Virus record (IMG/VR): IMGVR_UViG_2579778670_000004
Length of the DNA stretch: 44,004 nucleotides
Reading direction: 5' to 3' (one strand)
DNA from: a virus
Taxonomy: Duplodnaviria; Heunggongvirae; Uroviricota; Caudoviricetes
The translations under genes were made by a program, and so were the position numbers. The notes beneath the pieces are model-generated. The model had not been told where the DNA came from and ran no database searches. It was given only the letters and a program-made list of their open reading frames with translations. Of this stretch, positions 23,053 through 41,688 are shown piece by piece (position 1 is the stretch's first letter; each line of letters begins with the position of its first letter).

Positions 23053-23232
23053 TTACGCGTCAGGGGGTGTAATAGTATATCCAGCTATTTCTGCCAACTC
23101 GAGAAACGCCATCAGGCTGGCAATCCGCTCATCATCGGTCAGAACACGCACACCAACGATGTGTCCGTCCTTACGCTTGATAACAGCCCGGCATGTTTCC
23201 GGTAGTTCGCCTATAGATTCTTGAATATTCAT
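23053..23232 (-). CDS. Small protein downstream of a LexA box (putative SOS-inducible factor)
   Basis: Track ORF 23053..23253 begins at TTG; the in-frame ATG at 23230..23232 is the more likely start (59 aa). A consensus LexA box lies about 25 bp upstream. Confidence 0.35.
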   Translation of the reverse strand: MNIQESIGELPETCRAVIKRKDGHIVGVRVLTDDERIASLMAFLELAEIAGYTITPPDA

Positions 23233-23254: not shown

Positions 23255-23270
23255 CTGTATATTTATACAG
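23255..23270. promoter_or_regulatory. LexA (SOS) box CTGTATATTTATACAG
   Basis: Perfect CTGT-N8-ACAG with AT-rich spacer, palindromic, in the promoter region of the 23053..23232 gene. Confidence 0.6.
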
Positions 23271-23383: not shown

Positions 23384-24025
23384 TTATTTATCACTCCTGT
23401 AAATTGGAATTAACCATTTTCTAATCGTCGACGCTGCAGGTGGGTCAGAGTATTTCGCCACAAAAATACCGGATATGTATTGCACGCCACGCGATAATGG
23501 CGCTGTCGGGTTTTCAGTAAAAAAACGATCAGCCAGTTCAATGGCTTCGCTTTTTAATCTGTGCTGTGGTCGTCCTCCGCCCTTTGTTCCCAGGTATCGC
23601 GCCAGTTGTTTGAAACGGTAGGCGATGATTAACGGTCGCATCATCATATTGAAAAAATCGCGGGCATCGTTGTCAGCGCCTTGCGCTATCAACAGTGCAA
23701 AAAACAGATACGGGATTATGTACACTTCAGGAGATATACGAACCCGTTCACAAGTTGGTGGAGCCAACTCAATAAGTAAGTCAGCCAGCGGATTCCCCTT
23801 TTCTCCACGTTTGTAATAGCGATACAGCGGCCCGATATCAAGTTCACTCACGTCGATTTCAGGATGCCCGGCAACGACTGTACGTATCTCTTCTGCCAGA
23901 GCGTCAAATATTGCCCCGGTCCGTTCAAGATAGAGCCTCCGGGTCGAACCGCGATCATCCAACGCCCGTAACATATCTAACCGGCTAACGAAAGTTTCAG
24001 GCCAGTCCTCATAGAAGGTTTTCAT
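23384..24025 (-). CDS. Hypothetical cargo protein (unknown function)
   Basis: Start placed at the Met with GAGGT Shine-Dalgarno (MKTFYEDW...), 213 aa; no recognisable motif. Followed on its strand by a 9-bp inverted repeat AAACGGTTT/AAACCGTTT at about 23,342..23,370. Confidence 0.45.
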   Translation of the reverse strand: MKTFYEDWPETFVSRLDMLRALDDRGSTRRLYLERTGAIFDALAEEIRTVVAGHPEIDVSELDIGPLYRYYKRGEKGNPLADLLIELAPPTCERVRISPEVYIIPYLFFALLIAQGADNDARDFFNMMMRPLIIAYRFKQLARYLGTKGGGRPQHRLKSEAIELADRFFTENPTAPLSRGVQYISGIFVAKYSDPPAASTIRKWLIPIYRSDK

Positions 24026-24268
24026 AATTACCTCGAATAATAAAAACTGCACTATTTGCACAATTTATTATTCGTTTTCACGCCGCTGAGTTCTATAAAA
24101 AAGAAAAAACCTCCGAGGCAGGGTTTTGTTATGGCTCGTTAAATCATCATCCAACTTTTTAGACTGAACGGTGATACTTGCAAATATTTGAAAATATGGG
24201 CTGGAACCCTATCTTATGATGTGCCTGGTAATTTATATTGTTGGGTCTTTATATCATGAGGAATCACT

Positions 24269-24502
24269 ATGGGTACGTTAGGCAACCAGCCGTGCAGAAG
24301 TCGTTATGAGTTCGATGATTTTAATTTAGCCAATCGAGCTGCGGCTCTTACTAAGTTAGCAAAAGAAACTGGTGTATCGGTGGATACCTTAATCAAACTT
24401 GAAATTGCTATGCAACTGAATCGGCTCAACTCCATCCTTATCGAAAACGGTGACAAGATGGACGAGAATCTGGCAGGTATTGGCGAGATACTGCAGAAGT
24501 GA
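24269..24502 (+). CDS. Small protein, possible degenerate HTH regulator
   Basis: 77-aa ORF with GAGGA Shine-Dalgarno; segment LAKETGVSVDTLIKLE resembles an XRE-type helix-turn-helix; followed by hairpin CCCCTC-TTCT-GAGGGG. Confidence 0.4.
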   Translation: MGTLGNQPCRSRYEFDDFNLANRAAALTKLAKETGVSVDTLIKLEIAMQLNRLNSILIENGDKMDENLAGIGEILQK

Positions 24503-24809
24503 GAGTAGCCCCTCTTCTGAGGGGTTGCACATTTAAAATATTAAGGGCGGTCTTCTTCACGTACACAGTCACCTGGTCGAATCGTTCACGCATACTGAGT
24601 ACAAAAAATCTCAACGATAAGATCAGGTTAGACCTGTATTTTCCAGAAACATATAGACGCCTAAAAAAACACTAAACTCATGATTATCATGTATGTTTTT
24701 ACTGGAAACATTGAACCATCCACAATACAGCGTAAAAAGCAAGCAATTCACAAGATTTTAAAGTGATTTATCTGGAAGACTTTACTACTAACAGTTAATA
24801 TCGTACCAG

Positions 24810-24828
24810 AAGTGCAGAATTTGCACTT
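24810..24828. promoter_or_regulatory. 19-bp perfect palindrome AAGTGCAGAATTTGCACTT (candidate operator)
   Basis: Perfect inverted repeat about 75 bp upstream of the metallopeptidase start codon. Confidence 0.4.
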
Positions 24829-24900
24829 TTACAGGAATGTGGTACGGAACATGCTGTCTATATTTCAACCAATAATCGTAATGCAGTAACTGGAGGAGCT

Positions 24901-25389
24901 ATGGCTACCAACCCAAGAGAGCACGCCCGGCGAGTGCTGGACACGTTCTGGTGCGGGCGTGGTTTCCCTGTTGATCCAGCGAAAATTGCTCACGACATGG
25001 GATTAGATGTTTTTATTACCGATCTTCCTGGGAAAGTTTCTGGCGCACTGATTAAACAAAAAGATCAAGATCCAGCGATCTTTCTAAACAGTGATGACAA
25101 CAAAGTTCGTCAACGTTTTTCATGTGGGCATGAGTTGGGGCATTACATCGCCCGGCAAGCATCGCATAGCGATGAATATGAGTACGTTGATTTACGTGGC
25201 GAAACCGCAAGCGCCGGAACGCATCCTGATGAAATTTTTGCAAACAAGTTCGCAGCAGAACTTCTGATGCCGGTAGATGAGGTCAGAAAACTGCACGCTG
25301 ACGGTCAACCAAGTTATATAATGGCGCATTATTTTGGCGTATCTGACGATGCGATGACTTATCGTTTAAAGAACTTGAGGTTGGGGTAA
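24901..25389 (+). CDS. ImmA/IrrE-family zinc metallopeptidase (HExxH)
   Basis: 162-aa ORF with HELGHY motif and overall ImmA/IrrE (COG2856-type) pattern; GGAGGA Shine-Dalgarno. Confidence 0.7.
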   Translation: MATNPREHARRVLDTFWCGRGFPVDPAKIAHDMGLDVFITDLPGKVSGALIKQKDQDPAIFLNSDDNKVRQRFSCGHELGHYIARQASHSDEYEYVDLRGETASAGTHPDEIFANKFAAELLMPVDEVRKLHADGQPSYIMAHYFGVSDDAMTYRLKNLRLG

Positions 25390-25398
25390 CGCTTTAAA

Positions 25399-26004
25399 AT
25401 GCCATCGGATGACGATTTTAACAGCCGTTTCAAACAGGAAGTAGCACGCAGACTGAAGGATTCCCTCAACCTACACCGTCAGTTAGCAGAAGAGGTTGAG
25501 CCGGAGGACGATGAAACTCCGGTTCAGTCTCCTGACGAAGCTTCACCTCAGCCAAAGGTTTCGCACGCCCCCAAAAAAACGGCTGTCCGTATTCGCGGAA
25601 TAGCCAGAAAAAGAGCTGCCGAAGCTCGCAAAATGGCTGTAGCTGCGTCTAGCAAAAGAATTCCAACTGCTACACCCTCTCAACAAGTCACCCGTACTGA
25701 GAGTAAAATCTTGACCGAGTTCACATCTGTGAAACAGGTGAATTCACTTGATACCGAGCATGAGCGCAAACAACTCAACAACAAAGATTTTGAAGCAGAA
25801 ATCGCTCTAAAAAAACGATACGGGAAATGGTTCCTGATTATCCTTGCTTTCCAACTTCTGATAATGAATGGTGTATTTATTGCCGACGGCGCAGGTAAGC
25901 TGGAATTTGAGGATTTAACACTACAGTTGTACATGGGCGGTACTTTGACAGAGGTATTCGGCCTCGTGCTGGTCGTGACAAAATACCTTTTTAAACGCAA
26001 GTAA
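25399..26004 (+). CDS. Membrane protein with charged N-terminal region and two C-terminal transmembrane helices
   Basis: 201-aa ORF 9 bp after the peptidase stop; about 140 aa Lys/Arg/Glu-rich, then FLIILAFQLLIMNGVFIA and TLTEVFGLVLVVTKYLF helices. Confidence 0.55.
   Translation: MPSDDDFNSRFKQEVARRLKDSLNLHRQLAEEVEPEDDETPVQSPDEASPQPKVSHAPKKTAVRIRGIARKRAAEARKMAVAASSKRIPTATPSQQVTRTESKILTEFTSVKQVNSLDTEHERKQLNNKDFEAEIALKKRYGKWFLIILAFQLLIMNGVFIADGAGKLEFEDLTLQLYMGGTLTEVFGLVLVVTKYLFKRK
25933..26004 (+). repeat. Direct repeat copy 1 (3' end of membrane-protein gene)
   Basis: About 72 bp, roughly 90 percent identical to 29354..29425. Confidence 0.7.
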
Positions 26005-26248
26005 CTCTCTCGGTCCAACAGTCTTTCGAAGGCCCTGATCAAAGGGCCTTGATAAATTAGCAGTGCGTTGAAAACAGATAGTTATTCCCATCAGTTCCAA
26101 CGTAATACACATCAAAAAAATCACCATTCTTTTGCTCTAACGTCAACACCTACCCTTAAAAAAATAATTCTCCAAGAATGAGAAAGTTATTGTGTGTATT
26201 AGATAAGATATGAGCTGACACATCTATGGCGTGGAGCCAAATTTAATA

Positions 26249-26282
26249 TGACAGTCCGCTCTGTGCCATAAGCGGACTGTCA
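26249..26282. other. Perfect 11-bp inverted repeat (TGACAGTCCGC / GCGGACTGTCA) with 12-nt loop; possible terminator or protein-binding site
   Basis: Seen directly in sequence, in the intergenic space downstream of both convergent genes. Confidence 0.4.
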
Positions 26283-26466
26283 ATAAACAGATTCACTTGT
26301 AAATCTTGAAGCTATACATATTTACTTTCAATGATAAATAAAAGAACTATCCAAAAATCACTGAGAGCATATTTTAACTAACCCTCCGCTACTATTAACA
26401 TAAATTTCACCCAACCATAATTAAATTGATACATATAGCAACTTACCTTGATACGAATCATCTGGG

Positions 26467-27165
26467 TTATATTTTTCCATATTTTTTTCCGTCAAATCGA
26501 ATCATGCCAGGATCAAGAAAATTAATTAAATCGATTAACGCGTGCTGTATTCTGATTAGCCTTTCTTTATAAATTCCGATATCTCTTGTCATATTTATCA
26601 CTTCATTGTTTAAATCTAAAAAAAATGGCTCATTGATAAAGCAATTTTCCTTTGTGAAACTGCCGTAACCTATGCAATCAAATCCAGTATCTGTTGATAT
26701 CAGCATCTTTTCTGCAATAGCTCTCTGCTCTCCTATGAAAAACATAAAATACTGACCAAAGACGTCTGTTTGGATTAATGAGTTAATATTGTTCTGTAAT
26801 CTAATAAACTCCCTCATTTTTTTATTTTTTTCTAGGCTAAGGTATTGAATGTCTATGCGGGCAGCTTCTGTCCATGCAAAAAACTGGGAAAAAAGAAAAA
26901 CAGTATTGTTGATAACATAATCTTGTTGGCGCTTATTCCCATTATGATAAAACTCTTCAATGAACCCCAATTCTAATATATTATAAATACGGCTTTGTAA
27001 GTCTGAAGCTGAGCGAATTAACGGTTCAATATAGTACTGATGTTTTCTCCTTACATCCAGTGATTCATTGAGCTTGTTTATTCTATTCTGATTATAAGTA
27101 GATATAGCAATAGAGATTATAGCTATTGCACCACTAATAAAGCTTGAAATTAATGCCGTACCCAT
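26467..27165 (-). CDS. Hypothetical protein with N-terminal transmembrane anchor (unknown function, AT-rich cargo)
   Basis: 232-aa ORF; N-terminal hydrophobic helix (ALISSFISGAIAIISIAIS); low-GC codon usage unlike the phage backbone. Confidence 0.5.
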   Translation of the reverse strand: MGTALISSFISGAIAIISIAISTYNQNRINKLNESLDVRRKHQYYIEPLIRSASDLQSRIYNILELGFIEEFYHNGNKRQQDYVINNTVFLFSQFFAWTEAARIDIQYLSLEKNKKMREFIRLQNNINSLIQTDVFGQYFMFFIGEQRAIAEKMLISTDTGFDCIGYGSFTKENCFINEPFFLDLNNEVINMTRDIGIYKERLIRIQHALIDLINFLDPGMIRFDGKKYGKI

Positions 27166-28352
27166 CTAAAAGTCCTTTGATTCTTGCTTGGTTAACAAAA
27201 TGACATAATTTTATTTAATGCCATAACAACTTAACAATATATCATAATATGATTATTATGGTGTAGCTTGTCGCATCTACGCTCCATTACAAACAGATGT
27301 AAGATATAACCTATATGTTTTAGCCAGCAAATTCGAAAGCATTCAAAGTAGTCTCATCGAACTCTCGAAACCCTATGTCTTCGGGTATAAAATATTTAAA
27401 TCCATTTGCATAATATCGACTCATGTTTATTATATTCTCCCCATTCACCATTAAGATTTGACATTATTTTCAACAATCGGTTATTGCAAGATTGAAATAT
27501 ATTTTTACTTGACACAATATTCCATGTAGCCCAGCGATTCGACTTACCCCCAACTATACGGACAATCTAAATTAAATCGATGATTTTTTGATACATTCTC
27601 CTCTCTCCATTACTTTATGTTTTTGTTCCCCAAAAATACCTTGCTCTCTAAAAAATAATTGTTCTTTAAGTTCAAAATCGAGATCTACATGAGCGTTAGA
27701 TACAAAGCTAATATGTTGAAATGTCTTTCCCCCCCCATAACGGCATTGTTATCTAAACTATGTTACACAAATATAATATTACCCTTTCAACGTAATCCAA
27801 GAATAAGATTAATGCCATTATATATATCATAAATATGATATTTTGTATATTTTTATCATTTAGCCTTGATTGTACTAGGTGTACTCTCAACGAAGTAGGG
27901 AAAGTCTGTTCCTCGCTCACAGCTGCCCTTCAGTAAGCGAAAAAATGCCTACTCGGTGCCATATACAGCCATTGTTATTAACAGCAGGGAATAATTCAAA
28001 ACTGAAATTAAATATCTACCTTTTACAGTAGAAATAGTTCCTCCAGGACACTATCCATTGCCGGGCACAATCACTCGGGGTATAACGATATAAAATATGT
28101 TCATGATAGTGCAGGTTCGTATATTAAGTTCAGCAGCGAAAACATGCCTTACAGGTTTCCGGTTTTGGGAGCGTCGTTACAGGATCCTGCGCATACCGTT
28201 CCCATCTGTTGAATTAAAGGTTTCACAGCCTTTGCCGATATCACCTTTTACCTTACCTGTGATGCGTTCAGTGCTCAGCGTTGTTTACTGTAGCTCTCGG
28301 GACTGATTACAGACCGCGTCTTAAAAACCAATCCTTACTCTAAAGGGAATTC

Positions 28353-29276
28353 ATGAGATTAAAATACTCAGTACTCTTACTCGCCATTGCCCTTACAGGC
28401 TGTGATAACAAAAAAGATGAGATCGGTTGTTCTTCGGAAATAACCCAGTCAGCTCTCATGGATTTATTAAAAAAATCTGCTTATGAAGGACTCTCTGAAC
28501 AGGTCGATAAATACCCTGATGTCACTAATCAGACCAAACGAAGCACACTGGACAAGATCAAACTAGCCATCTCTGAGATCTCCACAACATCAAGTGACAC
28601 GGGCAGCACAATGAAAACTTGTGAAGGGACCGTGACGATGACTCTATCTGCGAACGAGTACGTCCAGCTTTCAGATGCTTACAGAAAGAATTTTAATCGT
28701 AATCTCGATAAGCAAATGGAAAGCCTGTTTTTGGAGAACAACGCAAACGCCTTTTCAAAACGTATCACCTACACCGTGCAGGCGACCGACGATCAGAAAA
28801 ACGTTTTTGTAAAAACCTCTACTGATAATCCGATATCAGTGGGCGCCGCTTTACTGACATCGCTTTCCATTATCACCCCGATCGTTGAGCAGCAGAAAAT
28901 CCAGCAGGCTAAGGATGCCCAACAGAGTCAAATTGAAGCGGAACAACAGGTGCAACTCAGGGCGCAAGAACAGGCTAAGTATGAGGCGGAGAAGCAAATA
29001 GAGAGACAGGCACAACTTCAGCCGCAAAAAGCTGACAACCTTGATCAGTCCCGAATGGCATTTGCGAATGCCGACTCTGATTTGAGTACCGTCTGGAGCA
29101 AGTTAACCCCGGCGAAGAAAAAAGATTTGCTGCCTTCTCAGCGTCAGTGGATCAAAACTAAGGATGCTATGTGCGGTAAAGTTTCAATGCAGGGAACAGA
29201 TGCTGAAGTCAAGAAAATGGTCGACTGCCAGACGCAAATGACCCTTTCAAGAATCGCTTTCCTCAGAAACCAATAA
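28353..29276 (+). CDS. Lipoprotein with C-terminal DUF1311 (LprI-like) domain
   Basis: 307-aa ORF; signal peptide plus lipobox LTGC; Gln/Glu-rich coiled-coil linker; C-terminal pattern QRQWIKTKDAMC...DCQTQMTLSRIAFL fits the DUF1311 signature as remembered. Confidence 0.55.
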   Translation: MRLKYSVLLLAIALTGCDNKKDEIGCSSEITQSALMDLLKKSAYEGLSEQVDKYPDVTNQTKRSTLDKIKLAISEISTTSSDTGSTMKTCEGTVTMTLSANEYVQLSDAYRKNFNRNLDKQMESLFLENNANAFSKRITYTVQATDDQKNVFVKTSTDNPISVGAALLTSLSIITPIVEQQKIQQAKDAQQSQIEAEQQVQLRAQEQAKYEAEKQIERQAQLQPQKADNLDQSRMAFANADSDLSTVWSKLTPAKKKDLLPSQRQWIKTKDAMCGKVSMQGTDAEVKKMVDCQTQMTLSRIAFLRNQ

Positions 29277-29353
29277 CTGAAGTCTCCTTCAAGCTGGCGC
29301 CAGGTGTTAACCTGGTGCCAGCTTAGTCATCAAGTGCATATGTAACTGTTTTA

Positions 29354-29450: not shown

Positions 29451-30269
29451 TCAAAATGCTGAATTAGCAACGGATATAGCCGACTTTTTCCCCATTACCA
29501 TCAATTTATCCAGTGTCATACTTCGCAGATTGTCGCTGTGGATCACCAGATACCCTGCCCGCTCAGCGATCTCTTTGAAAGCGTCAAAGGTCATCAGATG
29601 TTCGCCTTTGGCAACATGGCGCATCCCGGTCACTTTTCCATTTTTGATAGTGGTGATAAAAGAAAAATCTGGAATGGTTGGGTGATTTTCATCGAGTAGC
29701 AGGCAGTGGATGTATTCAATCGCCTCTAACATTTGCGTCTGTGACAGTTGTTCTATGTGAGAGACGGCGAAGCGTTGATGAATCATGGTGTAGGCATCGG
29801 GATACATCATGCCTTTCTTGCCGACCAGTATATTAACGGCATCACGCAAGGGAGTACGGTCATCGGTAGTTGTACTCCGCCTCTCTGGACGCTGGCTAAA
29901 ATAACAATCTTCCAGCTTTTCGAAAACTTCCCAGGCCTGTTCTGTTTCCAGCATTTTGGCATGGCGAGCTGCGCCGCGTTCTGTCCAGAGAATGAGGGAT
30001 CGGGTATGTTTAGCAACTGACTGACTATCTGTCAGTCTGTTTTTGAAGTCGCGTAATTCATTACCTTCCAGCTTAAAAAAATGCTTTCCTACGACAAATC
30101 TGGCGATGTTGCGCTTGAAGTTTTGCTGGATACCATTTACTTCCGTGCCATACAAACTGGCAAGCAATTCAGTAGTGATGACGGGAAGTTGGTTATGATG
30201 TAGCGGAGAAAGGGATTCCGCAGATATTTGGACTGTCATCGCAGTGGCCTCACTTAGTGTTTTTTTCAT
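29451..30269 (-). CDS. Phage antirepressor (ORF6N-type N-terminal domain, KilAC-type C-terminal domain)
   Basis: N-terminal pattern LPVITTELLASLYG...NFKRNIARFVVGKHFFKLEG matches antirepressor domains as remembered. Start moved to the ATG at 30267..30269; the track ORF begins at a TTG at 30287. Confidence 0.6.
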   Translation of the reverse strand: MKKTLSEATAMTVQISAESLSPLHHNQLPVITTELLASLYGTEVNGIQQNFKRNIARFVVGKHFFKLEGNELRDFKNRLTDSQSVAKHTRSLILWTERGAARHAKMLETEQAWEVFEKLEDCYFSQRPERRSTTTDDRTPLRDAVNILVGKKGMMYPDAYTMIHQRFAVSHIEQLSQTQMLEAIEYIHCLLLDENHPTIPDFSFITTIKNGKVTGMRHVAKGEHLMTFDAFKEIAERAGYLVIHSDNLRSMTLDKLMVMGKKSAISVANSAF

Positions 30270-30511
30270 CACCACCAGCGACGCCAATCATCTGGTGGTG
30301 AGCTGTGCAGGGTTGGCGTAACCGGCTAAGTGAACCCGGCGCTTCCACAGAAGCCCCCACACAGCCCACCATAATGCGAATGTGGCCGTGCCTAACACAT
30401 AAAAAAACCGCTAACGCGGCTATGCGTCACTTAGATATCCGGGACGCCAATCCCGGCAACCGATTTTGCGGCTGCGCGGAAACTATAGCCCCGGACTTTT
30501 TCTAAGTCAAT

Positions 30512-32098: not shown

Positions 32099-32136
32099 TG
32101 GTCTTTCCTCGGTTATTTCACGCTGGTCAGGCGTGG

Positions 32137-34557: not shown

Positions 34558-35034
34558 TCATGCATGGTGGTCTTGCGCAGTGCGTATCACTGCTCCTCGC
34601 GTCGCTACCAGCGCCGCTATTGCTTCGTCAATTTCCTGAATAGTTAACTCTGGCGCGAAGTGGAGATGTACAGCGTTAATCGCTTCCACCCCTTCTTTTG
34701 CCGCCAGCGTTGCCAGCAAAACGGGATCGCCCGGCGACTCCAGACGTGCCCGCCGTTCTGCGGGTAGCACGGCTTTCATCACACTGGCCAGCACCTGAGT
34801 TTTTCGGCGCGCCGCCGTTGTCTCGCCACGTAACCAGCGAAAGATTTTCTGCCGATTGTTGTTGATGGCTCTCCAGTCCACGTTGCCGTCCGCGTCCTCA
34901 AATTCATGTAGTCTCAACTCATCATTGCGTCCCTGACTGAACCAGGCCCGGCAGATTTCAATCGTGACGAGTTCCTGCCCTGCCCTTGCCGCCCAGGTCA
35001 AAATCTCTTTTTGTAATTCCTCTTGGTTTTCCAT
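34558..35034 (-). CDS. Early regulatory-region protein (YdaT/CII-position protein, function uncertain)
   Basis: 158-aa ORF directly downstream of the Cro-like gene, arranged as in Rac-type prophages. Confidence 0.35.
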   Translation of the reverse strand: MENQEELQKEILTWAARAGQELVTIEICRAWFSQGRNDELRLHEFEDADGNVDWRAINNNRQKIFRWLRGETTAARRKTQVLASVMKAVLPAERRARLESPGDPVLLATLAAKEGVEAINAVHLHFAPELTIQEIDEAIAALVATRGAVIRTAQDHHA

Positions 35035-35092
35035 AGCGTCTCCTGTCGCTAAAAATTGATTACGCTTAATCAGATTTGGGGCTCACCAACAG

Positions 35093-35323
35093 TTAAGCTG
35101 CTTCCGTTTTAGGCAAGCTGTCATCTGGGTTTGGGTAAAGATCCGGTCTAAGATCATGAGGGGTCACGCGCCATTCAAGAGCTTCAGATGTGCGCAAAAC
35201 CTCTTCACCGGGAACCCGTCCTTTGAACCAGAGGCTTACCGTTTGTGGTTTTTTCCCTAATCGCCGCCCTAACTCGGATTGACTCATTACGGAAAGAATT
35301 TTGTCTTGCAGTTGTTTATCCAT
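35093..35323 (-). CDS. Cro-like HTH regulator (YdaS-like)
   Basis: Start set at the ATG with AAGGAG Shine-Dalgarno (MDKQLQDKILSVMSQSELGRRLG...), 76 aa; divergent from the repressor gene. Confidence 0.5.
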   Translation of the reverse strand: MDKQLQDKILSVMSQSELGRRLGKKPQTVSLWFKGRVPGEEVLRTSEALEWRVTPHDLRPDLYPNPDDSLPKTEAA

Positions 35324-35348
35324 ATGGACTCCTTGTGTCCGCGTCATC

Positions 35349-35387
35349 ATTACAAACAATAACTGTAATTACAAATTATATTTGCAA
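35349..35387. promoter_or_regulatory. Operator region between divergent cro-like and repressor genes
   Basis: Inverted repeats ATTACA-N9-TGTAAT (35349..35369) and TTACAAAT-TAT-ATTTGCAA (35369..35387). Confidence 0.45.
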
Positions 35388-35406
35388 TGCTCCCTACAAT
35401 TAAACC

Positions 35407-35835
35407 TTGTATCCTTACGGTATGAACACAAAAACGAAAAACATGGCTTTTGCTAGCCGACTACAACGGATTCTAAAAGACTTAGGCTGGTCTCAATCTG
35501 AGTTAGCTCGCCATATTGGGGTTACGGCTCAATCAGTTCAGGCATGGTGTAATGGGGTAACTCCAAGAAAAGATAAATTAGACAAGCTAGCAAAAGTGAC
35601 CGGATACCCTGTTCATTTTTTCTTCATGAATGAAGGGGAATATTTGGATGAATCCACACTACACCCGGGTAATTACAATCAAGAACTAACCCCGCAAGAA
35701 CAGGCTCTACTGCAACTATTCAGAGGACTGCCTGAGAGCGAAAAAAATAAATTAATCAATGAGCTAAAAGAAAAAAGAGAGCACTTCGATCTACTGCTAA
35801 AAGAACTACTTGAAGCCAAAAACCAGACAAAATAG
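35407..35835 (+). CDS. CI-like prophage repressor (XRE-family HTH, no S24 peptidase domain)
   Basis: 142-aa ORF; N-terminal HTH (LGWSQSELARHIGVTAQSVQAW); C-terminal short coiled-coil segment only. Confidence 0.6.
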   Translation: MYPYGMNTKTKNMAFASRLQRILKDLGWSQSELARHIGVTAQSVQAWCNGVTPRKDKLDKLAKVTGYPVHFFFMNEGEYLDESTLHPGNYNQELTPQEQALLQLFRGLPESEKNKLINELKEKREHFDLLLKELLEAKNQTK

Positions 35836-35953
35836 TTCAGTTCAAATTTCCAGGCCAGCCGCTGCTGGCATGCAACTTTCCCCTAACACAAAAACACCTT
35901 TACACAGTGAATATTTTTTTGCCCCTCACTACAAATTATTTTTTAAAAACACA

Positions 35954-35982
35954 TTGACCATTACAAATACAAATTGTAAAGT
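35954..35982 (+). promoter_or_regulatory. Sigma70-like promoter with embedded operator palindrome (early-left promoter candidate)
   Basis: TTGACC, 17-bp spacer, TAAAGT; spacer contains TTACAAATACAAATTGTAA, related to the operator half-sites at 35369..35387. Confidence 0.4.
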
Positions 35983-36845
35983 CACTTTCATCAACAACGC
36001 TTACCCAGCGGCAGTTGTTCAGAAACACGTTCTGACAGCCGGAAAGACGGCACCAAATTTTGCGCGTCGGCGCCAACACGGTGACAGAGGGAAAGACTTC
36101 ACCGGCATATGGCACATGTGTCGAAGCGGTCTGGATGGAAGCGGAGCCTTAACGCGTTGTCTCCATAGCAGGTAGCCGGAATGTGCAAGCCACAGCCAGG
36201 TATGAGCGATTGATTCACCATCAAGGCGATACGGTGTGACCACCAGGGAAGAGTCCTGGCTACAACACGAGAGCGCACTTCATCGACTCAACTTTGAGCT
36301 TTGTCGTTAAATTTTGAAATGGCGGAGTGCGCTCCCGGTTGTGGTGAACAGGTGTTTAACGGGAACTCCCTGCCCGTTACCCGGTTCGATTCCGGGCGCC
36401 CATCATCAATTTGCTGTGTTTAGTCTTTGCCCAGTCCGCACGATGGGCCATTTTTTCACACAGCCAGGTTTTATCGCTGTGCCTGAGTCCCCAACAGGAG
36501 AGGCCAAACCCGCAGCGTGACACCAGGGAAAGACCGGAGGAAGTACCACGCCTGACCAGCGTTGACCATGAGCCTGACCAGCTCAAAACAGGAAAGACCA
36601 GCCCGGGCCTGACCAGCCCTGTACGGTCGTAATGGAAACATAACGACGCCGGAAACGTAACCGGCACCCTTTAGATAGCAAAAGACCCGCACAAGGCGGG
36701 CCAGTTACCCCGAACGGCGACCAAACCATTCGGATTTATCACAAGTGACCAAACTTGTGATGAGGAAAGACCAACGACACTGACGCTATGGAAGCTGATC
36801 AATATTCGCTGATCGGCTCTGAGTATACATTACCAAGGAGTCGCT

Positions 36846-37166
36846 ATGGAAGCGCGCACCATCCCAGTAACACTCTTTATTCATTATGCAACTTCAACTT
36901 TCAGCCACGAAAAGCTGCTTGTTGCGACTGTTGATATGTCAAAAAATTTTCCAGACAGGTACATCCTTCTGGAAAGCCGCGAAATTGAAATTACCGTTAA
37001 CCAGCCCGAGCCAATCGACATCATCGGTTTACAGGTCGAGCAACTGCGTGAACAAAAACAGAAAACAGTCGCCGACGCCCAACAGCGTATTGCTGCTATC
37101 GATGACAAAATCCAGCAGTTACTTTGCATCGAATACACGCCAGATACCGATGAGCTCCCCTACTAA
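36846..37166 (+). CDS. Hypothetical early-left protein
   Basis: 106-aa ORF with AAGGAG Shine-Dalgarno. Confidence 0.4.
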   Translation: MEARTIPVTLFIHYATSTFSHEKLLVATVDMSKNFPDRYILLESREIEITVNQPEPIDIIGLQVEQLREQKQKTVADAQQRIAAIDDKIQQLLCIEYTPDTDELPY

Positions 37167-37196: not shown

Positions 37197-38151
37197 ATGA
37201 CCATTTTTAACGGCTTGTTAGAAGCGAAAAAAGGCGCGCTCAAAAACGGCGCGATCCCGGCGCTGGCCATCGCCATCGCCGCCCCTAACAAAAAAGTTGC
37301 CGAGAACATCATCATCGGCAAATTGTGGGAAGCCTACCCTGACCACGGCGACAACTATTTCAAACCTAAAATCTGGGAAGATGCCCCGGGCCAACCGCGC
37401 CCAGGCGTCGGTGAGTTTGATGAGACGTTTGCCACAGAACACAGTTTTGATGGCGAAAAATGGGTAGTTAACACTCCTGTTGATTCAGATTGCAGTTCAG
37501 CAGATATCTCACAGGTTAGCGACCTGATGAAACTGCCGGCTCGTGAACGATTCGCCGCCGTTCTGCTGTTCAGCCACGACGCCAACGAAGTCGACAGTGA
37601 ATTGCTTGTGCAGACGCGTGAATACCTGGAGATGCTCGATAACAGTGATACTGACAGTGAGGATGAGGTTGACGCGTTTAACCGCATCGTTCTTGATGCC
37701 ATGGTGGCGTGTAAGCCCATCGAGTACATGCATATTGCTGGATTGAATAATCTGGTACATGCAATTTTGGCAAGTTGCGATACCCAGGAACAAAACCCGA
37801 CCAGTTGGACTATCTCCAAATTTATAAAAAAATGGGTAGAGAATCCCGGTAAACGAGATGAAATGCTGCCGGAGGTAAAACCAGAAACAGCATCCGCACG
37901 TCCTTACAAACAGACTCACGCCACTCTGGATCGTGAAATTGCCTGCGCCCTGTTACCTGTTGCCCCGGAAAAAATCACCCCCAGCATCCTGAAAGCGGCA
38001 GACGAAATAATCAGTCAGGACAGGGAAGATTTTAAACGCTGGTCAATGGCCTTGCGCACAACGGATCAGATCCTTGCCTATGACCGCGCATCAGTATTCG
38101 GTGTTATTCAGAGCGCCCCCGCAAAAGACACGTACCACTTCCCACAATCCC
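37197..38151 (+). pseudogene. 5' part (codons 1-318) of a roughly 738-codon gene disrupted by IS911
   Basis: Reading frame runs into the IS left end at 38152; after removing the IS and one CCC target copy the frame continues into 39405..40666 without a stop. Confidence 0.6.
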
Positions 38152-38181
38152 TGAAGTGGTCAACAAAAACTGGCCACCGAG

Positions 38182-39329
<1,148 letters not shown>

Positions 39330-39404
39330 TATGGCACCTGTGTTGTTCTGAGGTGAGCATATCACCTCTGTTCAGGTGGCCAAATTCAGTAAACCACTTC
39401 ACCC

Positions 39405-40666
39405 TGCGCAGTCACATCGACAACTGGCTGCAAGCTAACGGGCAGCGTGATGCAAATGCTGTTGAAGAGAAGCCAAAGGAAGCAGCACCCAAGGATGATG
39501 TAAAAGTCACCAACCACGGCGGCGGACGATTCTCAATTGATGGGATGATGTCAGAAACACCCTCAAATCAGGGCGAAAAAAGCGAAGCTGCAAATGCTGG
39601 AGAACGTAGTTTGCAGCAGTTGCGTGAGCAGTTTGTCACGCCTCGCCATGTGTATGACGTACCTGAAAATAACGCCGTATCACAGAGGGAACCTGCAGCT
39701 ATTACCCTGGCAGAAGAGACTCCTCCACAAGAACAACTTAGCGAGCAGGTAAAGGATCTGGTGCAGAACGTTGACGCGCTGGTTGAGCGGATCCATGCCG
39801 AAGAGCACAAGCGGCAGAATGCAATCTCAGCTATCGAAACGGAGTTAAAGGACTCAGATGACACGGATAACCTGGCATTGTGGAAGAACGTATTCAAAAC
39901 CGATGAGCGCTTCACCAGTGCTTTCTCTCAGAATGGCGGCGGCACATCCATCAACGGCACTTATATAGCGATGAAAGCGACTCGCGAATTTGGGCCATTT
40001 GGTATTGGCTGGGGGGTAGAGGTGCTGGAGGAGCGCTTTGATAAAGGCGCACCAATAGTTCGCAAAAAACAGGTTGGTGAAAAAATAGAATGGGATCTGA
40101 TTCAAGACGGTGTTGGCGGGTACCTATGTGAAATGCACCACACCATGAAAGTGAGAGTCTGGTACATATTGAATGGGGTACGCGGTGAGTCCGAGGCTTA
40201 CGGATGCACACCTTATATCTACGACACTAAATACGGACCAACAAGCGACGGCGAAGCACCGAAGAAATCCTGGACGGATGCTGTTAAGAAAGCGCTATCC
40301 CCTCTCGGATTCAGCGCCGATATTTTCATGGGCCTGTACGACAATCCGGAATACCGCCAGAGGAATAAAGCTGAGTTTGATATCAAGAATGCCAGCGAGA
40401 ATGCGGAAGATGCTACCCGTCTGCGTAAGGAACTGGATGAGAAGCTTATCAACGTTGCCAATACGCTGGCCGCCGCGGTAACCGCCAACGAAGTAAACAA
40501 GGTATTTGGCCTCATCGCCCGCGAAGTGGATGTACACAGGAAAGCAGCGGAAACCAAAGGCGATAAAGAATATTCATCGTATCTGGGATCACGTCTGCGC
40601 CGTATCACCGACATTAAAACTGAACGCCTCGCCGCCCTTACCGCTGCACAGGAGCAAACAGCATGA
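39405..40666 (+). pseudogene. 3' part of the IS911-disrupted gene; contains a Rad52/Sak-like single-strand annealing domain
   Basis: Frame contiguous with 37197..38151 after IS excision. Motifs FGPFGIGWGVEV and KKSWTDAVKKALSPLGFSADIF resemble the conserved Rad52-family cores (FG..GW and K.A.TD..KRAL..FG) as remembered. Confidence 0.5.
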
Positions 40667-41463: not shown

Positions 41464-41688
41464 ATGCTGCGATGGCAACCGGGAGCAACTCTGCTCTCCG
41501 CATTTGATATCAAAATTGGTCGACTGTCGGCCAGCGTCAGGAAACAGACTTTGACCGAGTCTGATATTGCCCGTGCCTGCCAGAAGGCAGATGACGCAAT
41601 AAGCTACATAATGAGGAAAGACCATGAAAAGCGATCACGACATAATCACCAGAGAAGAAATGGTCGAGCTGACGGGAAGCCCACTTAA
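41464..41688 (+). CDS. Hypothetical small protein
   Basis: ATG with GGAGGA Shine-Dalgarno (shorter than the 41434 track ORF); overlaps the next gene by about 65 bp, so one of the two may be shorter than drawn. Confidence 0.3.
   Translation: MLRWQPGATLLSAFDIKIGRLSASVRKQTLTESDIARACQKADDAISYIMRKDHEKRSRHNHQRRNGRADGKPT

Follow-up and report, generated by a model that had tools for sequence, protein, structure and literature searches.

A probable Gifsy/DicA-type immunity switch with a peptidase-less repressor and a candidate SOS-induced antirepressor in an uncharacterised Escherichia coli prophage

How is lysogeny maintained, and how would it be broken, in a temperate prophage whose repressor carries no peptidase domain? 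The question is raised by positions 35093 to 35982 of the IMG/VR record IMGVR_UViG_2579778670_000004, a stretch of 44,004 nucleotides (hereafter the window) that represents an uncharacterised E. coli prophage of temperate type whose head genes resemble those of lambda and whose contractile tail resembles that of P2; it is integrated beside tRNA-Leu/Cys/Gly and adjoins pgsA-uvrC. An original prediction, made from the sequence alone, had placed here a repressor consisting of a helix-turn-helix (HTH) and a short coiled coil, accompanied by related operator palindromes at two promoters. Our analysis indicates that the region is probably the immunity (lysogeny) switch of this prophage, of the Gifsy/DicA type and induced via an antirepressor under SOS control. 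This design is already known from the Salmonella Gifsy phages and from the E. coli prophages Qin and CP-933P.

The two palindromes on which that prediction was built, TTACAAATTATATTTGCAA (35369..35387) and TTACAAATACAAATTGTAA (35961..35979, inside a TTGACC-17-TAAAGT promoter at 35954..35982), lie exactly where it had put them. They are the only two matches in 44 kb to the pattern TTACAAANNNNNTTTGTAA when at most one mismatch is allowed, with 0.01 expected. Allowing up to three mismatches yielded 10 matches (2.9 expected), four of them inside the 630-bp switch region, and the top family returned by an unsupervised repeat search comprised these same four 20-mers. A weight matrix for which the sites of two related prophages alone were used ranked five positions highest in the window (35369, 35961, 35350, 35394 and 35929), with scores of 18.0 to 24.7 bits, the best score in 30 shuffles being 16.3 bits. 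The sites conform to a 19-bp consensus, TTACAAA-N5-TTTGTAA. Three of them occupy the 98-bp gap between the start codons of the repressor gene and the divergent cro-like gene: OR1 (TTACAAACAATAACTGTAA, 35350..35368), recovered by the weight matrix and the repeat search; OR2, the first of the predicted palindromes, recovered by the weight matrix, pattern and repeat searches; and OR3 (CTACAATTAAACCTTGTAT, 35394..35412), scoring 18.0 bits with the weight matrix. The remaining two lie downstream of the repressor gene: OL2 (CTACAAATTATTTTTTAAA, 35929..35947), of which the left half-site alone is good, and OL1, the second predicted palindrome, which sits inside the spacer and -10 element of the early-left promoter. 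Related operators are thus found at both the divergent region and the early-left promoter, as had been proposed, although their number is three plus two rather than one at each.

The five sites are located at the same relative positions, within the same gene order, in a Salmonella relative (L005; repressor 87% identical) and a Klebsiella relative (L008; 65–67%). OR1, OR3 and OL2 are conserved in both, OR3 also in a further relative (L011), and OL1 retains its half-sites in both with a different centre. Half-site positions T2, C4, A5, A6 / T15, G16, A18 are invariant across the window, Salmonella and Klebsiella, and the substitutions fall mostly at central positions and at position 1, as expected for the operator of a dimeric HTH protein. 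These observations suggest that the palindromes form a conserved operator family serving the divergent repressor/cro region and a separate downstream promoter, and we infer from this conservation, and by analogy with related switches, that the repressor binds them. Two more distant relatives (L026 and L027; 45–47% identity) also carry a divergent YdaS-type gene and repeats common to the regions flanking the repressor gene. Covariation of operator and recognition helix was considered with these two and set aside, the half-sites being too similar (ACAA-type) for a clean test.

The distance between OR and OL is 592 bp in the window versus roughly 1 kb in the relatives. There, a 157-aa gene and a strong intrinsic terminator separate the repressor gene from OL (L005 3427-3900; L008 3431-3904), in what we take to be the position of rexAB in lambda; the corresponding segment of the window (35836-35928) is without the 157-aa gene and contains a weak hairpin alone (35844-35879).

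The arrangement of a divergent pR/pRM-like region with a separate early-left promoter, as originally proposed, is likewise conserved in the relatives and parallels that of lambda, Gifsy and CP-933P (PMC8630535). Promoters and start sites are assigned here from sequence. The TTGACC-17-TAAAGT element on the plus strand, a predicted pL-like promoter, was the sole sigma-70-like promoter reported by a scan of 35000..37000, and its counterparts read TTGACC-17-TAGAGT in the Salmonella relative and TTGACG-17-TAGATT in the Klebsiella relative, so that the -35 element and the T-A-x-x-x-T of the -10 are kept. For pR there are two candidates on the minus strand, TTAATT-17-TATAAT, whose perfect TATAAT (35380..35375) forms the centre of OR2, and TTGCAA-17-AGTTAT; the first is preferred here, its -10 being strong in each of the three relatives (TATAAT, TATAAT, TATTAT). 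A candidate -10 element for pRM, TATCCT (35410..35415), is overlapped by OR3 and ends 7 nt before the A of the ATG at 35422, which makes a leaderless pRM transcript plausible; leaderless mRNAs have precedents in lambda cI and in paaR2 (PMC8630535).

The repressor, a CI analogue, is most likely encoded on the plus strand at 35422..35835 and comprises 137 aa. Its ATG is the start kept in the Salmonella and Klebsiella relatives, 7 nt after the conserved TATCCT. The length of 142 aa given in the original prediction corresponds to a TTG at 35407, which we rejected because it falls inside OR3 and has no Shine-Dalgarno sequence, the ATG at 35422 being conserved instead. The start annotated by PGAP/RefSeq (ATG 35443, 130 aa) was also rejected, since its methionine is a leucine in the Salmonella orthologue; the RefSeq-annotated repressor is probably seven residues too short.

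In contrast to the length, the predicted composition of the protein held up. Pfam identified HTH_3 (1.7e-12), with Cro/C1-type HTH families the only ones at E≤0.1, and an AlphaFold2 (AF2) model calculated from 39 family members was all-helical, with a mean predicted local distance difference test score (pLDDT) of 77. In that model, numbered on the 136-aa query without methionine, a helical HTH domain extends up to residue 67, residues 68-89 are unstructured (pLDDT <50 at 75-85), and the C-terminus forms a short helix (90-100), a turn and a long one (104-134) of 31 residues, in which hydrophobic positions recur at about heptad intervals. The label "HTH plus short coiled coil" therefore fits reasonably well, the coiled coil being suggested by the predicted 31-residue amphipathic helix. 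A profile search of the PDB placed the N-terminal domain closest to the DNA-binding domains of P22 C2 and the 434 repressor (1e-13). With Foldseek against the PDB, the HTH domain alone was well matched; the whole-length analogues returned (SinR/SinI, and the phi106 repressor with AimX) were set aside as analogies only.

No S24 peptidase domain was found in the repressor by Pfam at E≤0.1, where a cryptic one had been named as a finding that would overturn the proposal, nor by PHROGs, NCBIfam, the PDB profile search or the AF2 model, and the sequence contains neither an Ala-Gly nor a Cys-Gly dipeptide. In agreement with the earlier proposal, RecA-stimulated autocleavage is hence not expected. 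Furthermore, the repressor aligns with Gifsy-2 GtgR (33% identity over 129 aa, E 5e-23), one of the Gifsy repressors that stay uncleaved during induction (PMC3121763), and with Qin DicA (32% identity over 134 aa, E 1e-17). The NCBIfam DicA model covers it from model position 2 to 132 of 135 (E 2.6e-20) with 72.6 bits against a cutoff of 101, so that it does not qualify as a DicA orthologue. An exhaustive search recovered many proteins of ~125-145 aa that align with it end to end, and the aligned set has in common a C-terminal motif, LLxLFxxLPExE. This full-length homology, C-terminal region included, suggests that the repressor belongs to the short, non-cleavable prophage repressors of the Gifsy/DicA type, and we infer its stability during induction on the same grounds.

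Divergently from the repressor, the minus strand encodes a 76-aa Cro analogue of the YdaS family (35093..35323) preceded by a strong AAGGAG ribosome-binding site; it matches Pfam YdaS_toxin at 35.7 bits (cutoff, 30 bits) and the transcriptional repressor family phrog_35 at 2.7e-24. It is followed on the same strand by a 158-aa CII analogue of the YdaT family (34558..35034), which matches Pfam YdaT_toxin above its cutoff (57.4 bits) and phrog_163, "CII-like transcriptional activator", at 7e-42, and then by a candidate replication initiator and a DnaB helicase. Between the cro-like stop and the ydaT-like start, a pattern match identified an inverted repeat resembling a YdaT box, TTGATTACGCTTAATCAG (35056..35073). 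It is the window's only match to TTGATT-N6-AATCAA at no more than one mismatch, a result that is weak alone, as 0.29 matches are expected and 25 of 100 shuffles gave at least one. The repeat sits almost where CP-933P YdaT has its footprinted OM site, which shares this consensus and lies at the ydaS coding region's end (PMC9986795).

If the repressor is not cleaved, how is it inactivated? The only CTGT-N8-ACAG in the window, the perfect LexA (SOS) box CTGTATAAATATACAG, lies some 12 kb away at 23255..23270, where it overlaps the -10 element (TATAAA) of a minus-strand ATGACA-17-TATAAA promoter. Behind it, a minus-strand open reading frame (ORF) at 23053..23232 encodes a Rem-like protein of 59 aa (phrog_340), followed in order by an irsA homologue, a DUF1364 gene and Q. 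Related prophages have kept the promoter, the LexA box and the 59-aa ORF, with the box at the same position in the loci L013, L014, L016-L021 and L023. In the prophage of strain ETEC1738 (L015/L022), the box has suffered a 2-bp deletion (CTGTATATATACAG), ~36 nt upstream of the 59-aa gene; with its broken box, an IS3 insertion and no annotated ORF6N gene, that prophage appears to be a decaying copy that still carries an identical repressor. The irsA homologue is 56% identical to Gifsy-2 STM1020, which was taken as irsA because it follows dinI and a small ORF in Gifsy-2, and the position of gftA in Gifsy-2, next to irsA, is that of the 59-aa ORF (PMC3121763). A profile of the 59-aa family matched Rem with a probability of 85% (E 6e-6); a PDB profile search with the same family gave nothing meaningful. 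The protein is also homologous to residues 199-236 of the ORF6N-domain antirepressor encoded by this prophage, so that the same small domain occurs free and fused in one element. The LexA box, the irsA synteny and the similarities to Rem and to the ORF6N protein make the 59-aa protein the best candidate for the inducer, an assignment by homology and analogy that we hold with modest confidence.

Taken together, these features are consistent with the following model. In the lysogen, the 137-aa repressor, with its 434/P22-C2-like HTH, flexible linker and helical C-terminal part for oligomerisation, would sit on the 19-bp operators; occupancy of OR1/OR2 and OL1/OL2 would keep off the rightward promoter (serving YdaS, YdaT and the replication genes) and its leftward counterpart. 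A pRM-type promoter, weak and probably leaderless, could be stimulated from OR2, whose centre lies ~44 bp before the repressor start, and would be shut through OR3 at a high repressor level. The YdaS-family protein would act as Cro on the same operators, and the YdaT-family protein as CII at the TTGATT-N6-AATCAG box between the ydaS-like and ydaT-like genes. Upon DNA damage, LexA cleavage would derepress the distant SOS promoter, and the Rem/GfoA-type 59-aa antirepressor then made would bind the repressor and take it off the DNA.

Several observations weigh against this interpretation. Similarity of the 59-aa protein to GftA was not detected by BLAST, and its family profile reached GftA with a probability of 13-17% (hhalign); the family has no named homologues in two large databases, where all members are "hypothetical protein". 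The pR promoter is not clear-cut, its two candidates matching the consensus at 8/12 and 9/12 positions and neither passing the promoter scan, and an insertion sequence (IS) in an early-left gene means that the copy in the window may not be fully functional. In addition, the prophage encodes two further potential inactivators, a CapP-like peptidase and an ORF6N-domain protein of the Ant type controlled by C4/IsrK RNAs, and the HTH-linker-helix layout of the repressor is also that of the protease-cleaved ImmR/CapH-type repressors. ImmA cleaves ImmR in ICEBs1, and CapP cleaves CapH. Here, an ImmA/IrrE (CapP-like) metallopeptidase (24901..25389, plus strand; Pfam Peptidase_M78 7.7e-18, PADLOC capP 2.4e-25) might cut the repressor in its linker, the disordered linker and helical C-terminus being typical of such substrates and the repressor giving a faint capH match (E 0.0024, PADLOC). 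We regard this as highly improbable. ImmA-type genes normally adjoin the gene of their substrate, and this one lies 10.5 kb from the repressor gene in a hotspot of variable cargo, which makes a role as core inducer unlikely; it is absent from related prophages, including that of ETEC1738 with its identical repressor (WP_000853106.1), and the full-length relatives GtgR and DicA are under antirepressor control. Between the two routes at which the original prediction had hinted, an antirepressor and a peptidase, the evidence favours the antirepressor.

Which antirepressor is a separate matter, since the main inactivator might be the ORF6N protein instead of the 59-aa protein, the two routes being compatible. 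This Ant-type protein of 262 aa (29451..30239, minus strand; Pfam ORF6N 8.9e-22) gives a strong match to the anti-repressor family phrog_4792 (2.7e-163), and its C-terminal homology to the 59-aa/Rem-like protein suggests that the two could have a repressor-binding module in common. RNAs encoded immediately upstream on the same strand (30291..30488) would gate translation of the ORF6N protein; there, a C4 antisense RNA (75.2 bits), a1/b1 target sites (c4-a1b1, 52.9 bits) and an IsrK-like RNA (isrK, 80.4 bits) all score above the Rfam gathering thresholds. The P1/P7 immI region and the Gifsy-1 isrK-anrP locus are the models for such gating. We nevertheless consider it unlikely as the principal route: no ORF6N gene is annotated in ETEC1738, which has the identical repressor, though that copy is damaged in the ways described; the relatives L016 and L017, whose repressor genes were not fetched, are without ORF6N yet possess the LexA box and the 59-aa ORF; and the Gifsy-1 homologue AnrP has been linked with the expression of antQ and not with prophage induction through the main repressor (PMC4825925). 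Should both proteins act, a Rem-like module free under LexA and fused to Ant under C4/IsrK would give two-input antirepression of a single repressor. A last alternative dispenses with SOS induction altogether: the locus could be a bistable cryptic switch of the CP-933P/Qin kind, flipped stochastically via the Cro-like protein, with the LexA-controlled ORF otherwise employed. CP-933P PaaR2 reportedly does not respond to mitomycin C (PMC8630535), dicBp turns on spontaneously in part of the cell population (PMC10448788), and the IS in the window copy and the broken LexA box of one relative would fit such a switch. Against this, the prophage has in other respects the look of a complete one, with genes for integrase, replication, Q, lysis, head and tail, a 2.4-kb stretch of its immunity region is matched in 474 of 5426 complete E. 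coli genomes in RefSeq (~9%), 415 of them at ≥99% identity, and the LexA box, promoter and ORF are conserved; we judge a cryptic switch very unlikely. Induction through the LexA-controlled 59-aa protein is the reading retained below.

A close precedent is provided by Gifsy-1, -2 and -3, in which the repressors GfoR, GtgR and GfhR are countered by the LexA-controlled antirepressors GfoA, GftA and GfhA (Lemire, Figueroa-Bossi & Bossi 2011, PMC3121763). Induction of these phages needs LexA cleavage, and the small antirepressor, whose gene stands behind a LexA box a long way from the immunity region and is flanked by dinI and irsA, binds the repressor and strips it from DNA; repressor homologues, including DicA and RacR, occur in most E. 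coli genomes (PMC3121763). The present locus resembles them in its ~137-aa peptidase-less repressor with full-length homology and in the divergent cro-like gene, and Gifsy-2 in particular in the shared repeats that a repeat search found on both sides of its repressor gene, upstream and downstream, and in the distant series of LexA box, small ORF and irsA homologue upstream of Q. It differs in its operator sequence, and so presumably in immunity, in the lack of a dinI gene in the SOS unit, in a CII analogue of the YdaT type where Gifsy-2 has a P22 C1-like protein, and in being a myovirus with a lambda-type head and a P2-type tail, not a Gifsy-type virion. In Qin of E. coli K-12, DicA likewise has no cleavage bond, and its relief is brought about by an antirepressor, Rem (Ragunathan et al. 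2023, PMC10448788). Our repressor can be aligned over its whole length with the 135-aa DicA, C-terminal LLxLFxxLPESE motif included; the divergent Cro analogue there, DicC, has 76 aa, and Rem is a small antirepressor that the 59-aa family resembles. Unlike Qin, which is defective, the prophage studied here is near-complete and has an intact SOS box; no exact CTGT-N8-ACAG was present in the 160 bp read upstream of Qin rem.

The YdaS/YdaT side of the switch finds its counterpart in CP-933P (Sp12) PaaR2/YdaS/YdaT, for which footprints, a repressor transcript without a leader and related operators at PL have been described (Jurenas et al. 2021, PMC8630535; Prolic-Kalinsek et al. 2023, PMC9986795). 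Our locus resembles CP-933P, and Rac (RacR/YdaS/YdaT), in that the CI analogue has no peptidase, Cro is of the YdaS family and CII of the YdaT family, in the TTGATT-N6-AATCAA-type box where ydaS meets ydaT, in a PR, a PRM and a separate PL that carry related operators, and in a leaderless repressor mRNA, proposed here and shown there. In contrast, the paaA2-parE2 toxin-antitoxin genes are absent and no ORF lies between the repressor gene and pL (in the relatives, an unrelated 157-aa gene occupies this place), and the operators are TTACAAA-N5-TTTGTAA rather than the GTTTAGTAA-type repeats of CP-933P. Lambda offers the same layout of a three-site OR, repeated OL sites, divergent pR/pRM and separate pL. 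Compared with lambda CI and the 434 and P22 repressors, and despite the similarity of its N-terminal domain to those of P22 C2 and 434, the repressor is ~100 residues shorter and has neither an S24 C-terminal domain nor a cleavage bond; its ACAA...TTGT-type operator half-sites are presumably reminiscent of 434 operators. The ImmR/ImmA (ICEBs1, phi105) and CapH/CapP systems resemble it in combining a short HTH repressor, with linker and helical C-terminus, and a Peptidase_M78 gene in one element, and differ in that the peptidase gene here is not adjacent, forms part of the variable cargo and is missing from the relative with the identical repressor.

The switch reveals no new principle. Specific to the locus are its operator sequence, presumably conferring an immunity of its own, the absence of dinI from the SOS unit, a small ORF that is Rem-like and not GftA-like, and the myovirus chassis; what the analysis adds is a defined consensus for the operators and a candidate for the Rem/GfoA antirepressor family, whose annotation is poor (phrog_340, function unknown). 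A Gifsy/DicA-type repressor paired with a candidate SOS antirepressor predicts LexA-dependent and potentially reversible induction, and cross-talk with the antirepressors of co-resident prophages, as shown for Gifsy phages.

Regarding distribution, the top-scoring genomes among the matches listed for the immunity region were mostly from human isolates, one of them annotated as from urine. The region had no nucleotide match in the phage collection INPHARED, and the near-identical phage records are only partial entries of 20-27 kb that cover the structural half and do not reach it. The insertion mentioned above is an IS3-family element of 1253 bp (38154-39406) that splits a large early-left gene, intact in strain SA186 (738 aa); the ORF at 37197-38306 is a truncation product of this event.

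The C4/IsrK-Ant segment (29451-30488) constitutes a module like the immI of P1/P7 and the isrK of Gifsy-1. Between it and the SOS/irsA-Q block extends the variable cargo hotspot (23384-29300), which here encodes, besides the CapP-like ImmA/IrrE peptidase, a 201-aa phrog_5346 protein without known function, an LprI-family protein and a 232-aa protein with a faint DRT-associated match; in relatives, the same hotspot is occupied by GmrSD-type (DUF262), methyltransferase and SMEK-domain genes instead. Some relatives carry a second LexA-box-like site, CTGTAAAAAAATACAG (position 8584 in L018-L021; position 21305 in L023), which has no counterpart in the window. It is located between an ImmA-type peptidase gene and a divergent 92-aa gene, which suggests that the peptidase module in these relatives is itself SOS-wired.

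Downstream of pL, ~860 nt follow without a called gene, and one of the distant relatives (45–47% identity) has a lambda N-like gene after its pL. Inside this leader, a 50-nt segment (36411-36460, plus strand) matches, at 84% identity, the 3' end of rprA, a chromosomal small RNA (sRNA) gene; it covers the conserved single-stranded stretch (seed) and the terminator, and ends in a terminator-like hairpin with a T-run. Its Rfam RprA score is 37.4 bits, below the gathering score of 70, and a full-text literature search for "RprA-like" found no paper. Directly upstream (36327-36404, plus strand) lies a degenerate cloverleaf resembling a tRNA, whose T arm is perfect (CCCGGTTCGATTCCGGG) and whose acceptor is imperfect; it is detected by ARAGORN at a relaxed threshold only and matches Rfam tRNA-Sec at 19 bits. 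The two pieces are separately retained: the Klebsiella relative keeps the RprA-like module and is without the tRNA-like piece, and the Salmonella relative keeps the tRNA-like piece (~4340-4425) and is without the RprA-like module. It is a speculative possibility, suggested by sequence likeness, that pL leads not into an N-type gene but into a leader bearing an RprA mimic; if the module were released as an sRNA, the repressor and its SOS antirepressor would directly gate a phage copy of a core RpoS/biofilm regulator, and induction would rewire host post-transcriptional regulation.

The same leader is populated by a 9-mer, GGAAAGAC(C), for which the window contains 22 matches at no more than one mismatch versus 8.4 expected. 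Of these, five fall within the non-coding pL leader (36041, 36090, 36527, 36591 and 36764, plus strand) and are conserved in the Salmonella and Klebsiella relatives, and a further copy is found at 41615 (plus strand). Copies at 32100 (minus strand), 34520 (minus strand) and 37187 (plus strand) stand directly before annotated start codons, in both early arms and in the context GAGGAAAGACCAATG. The repeat could represent a ribosome-binding context, what is left of former gene starts, or a binding site for protein or RNA.

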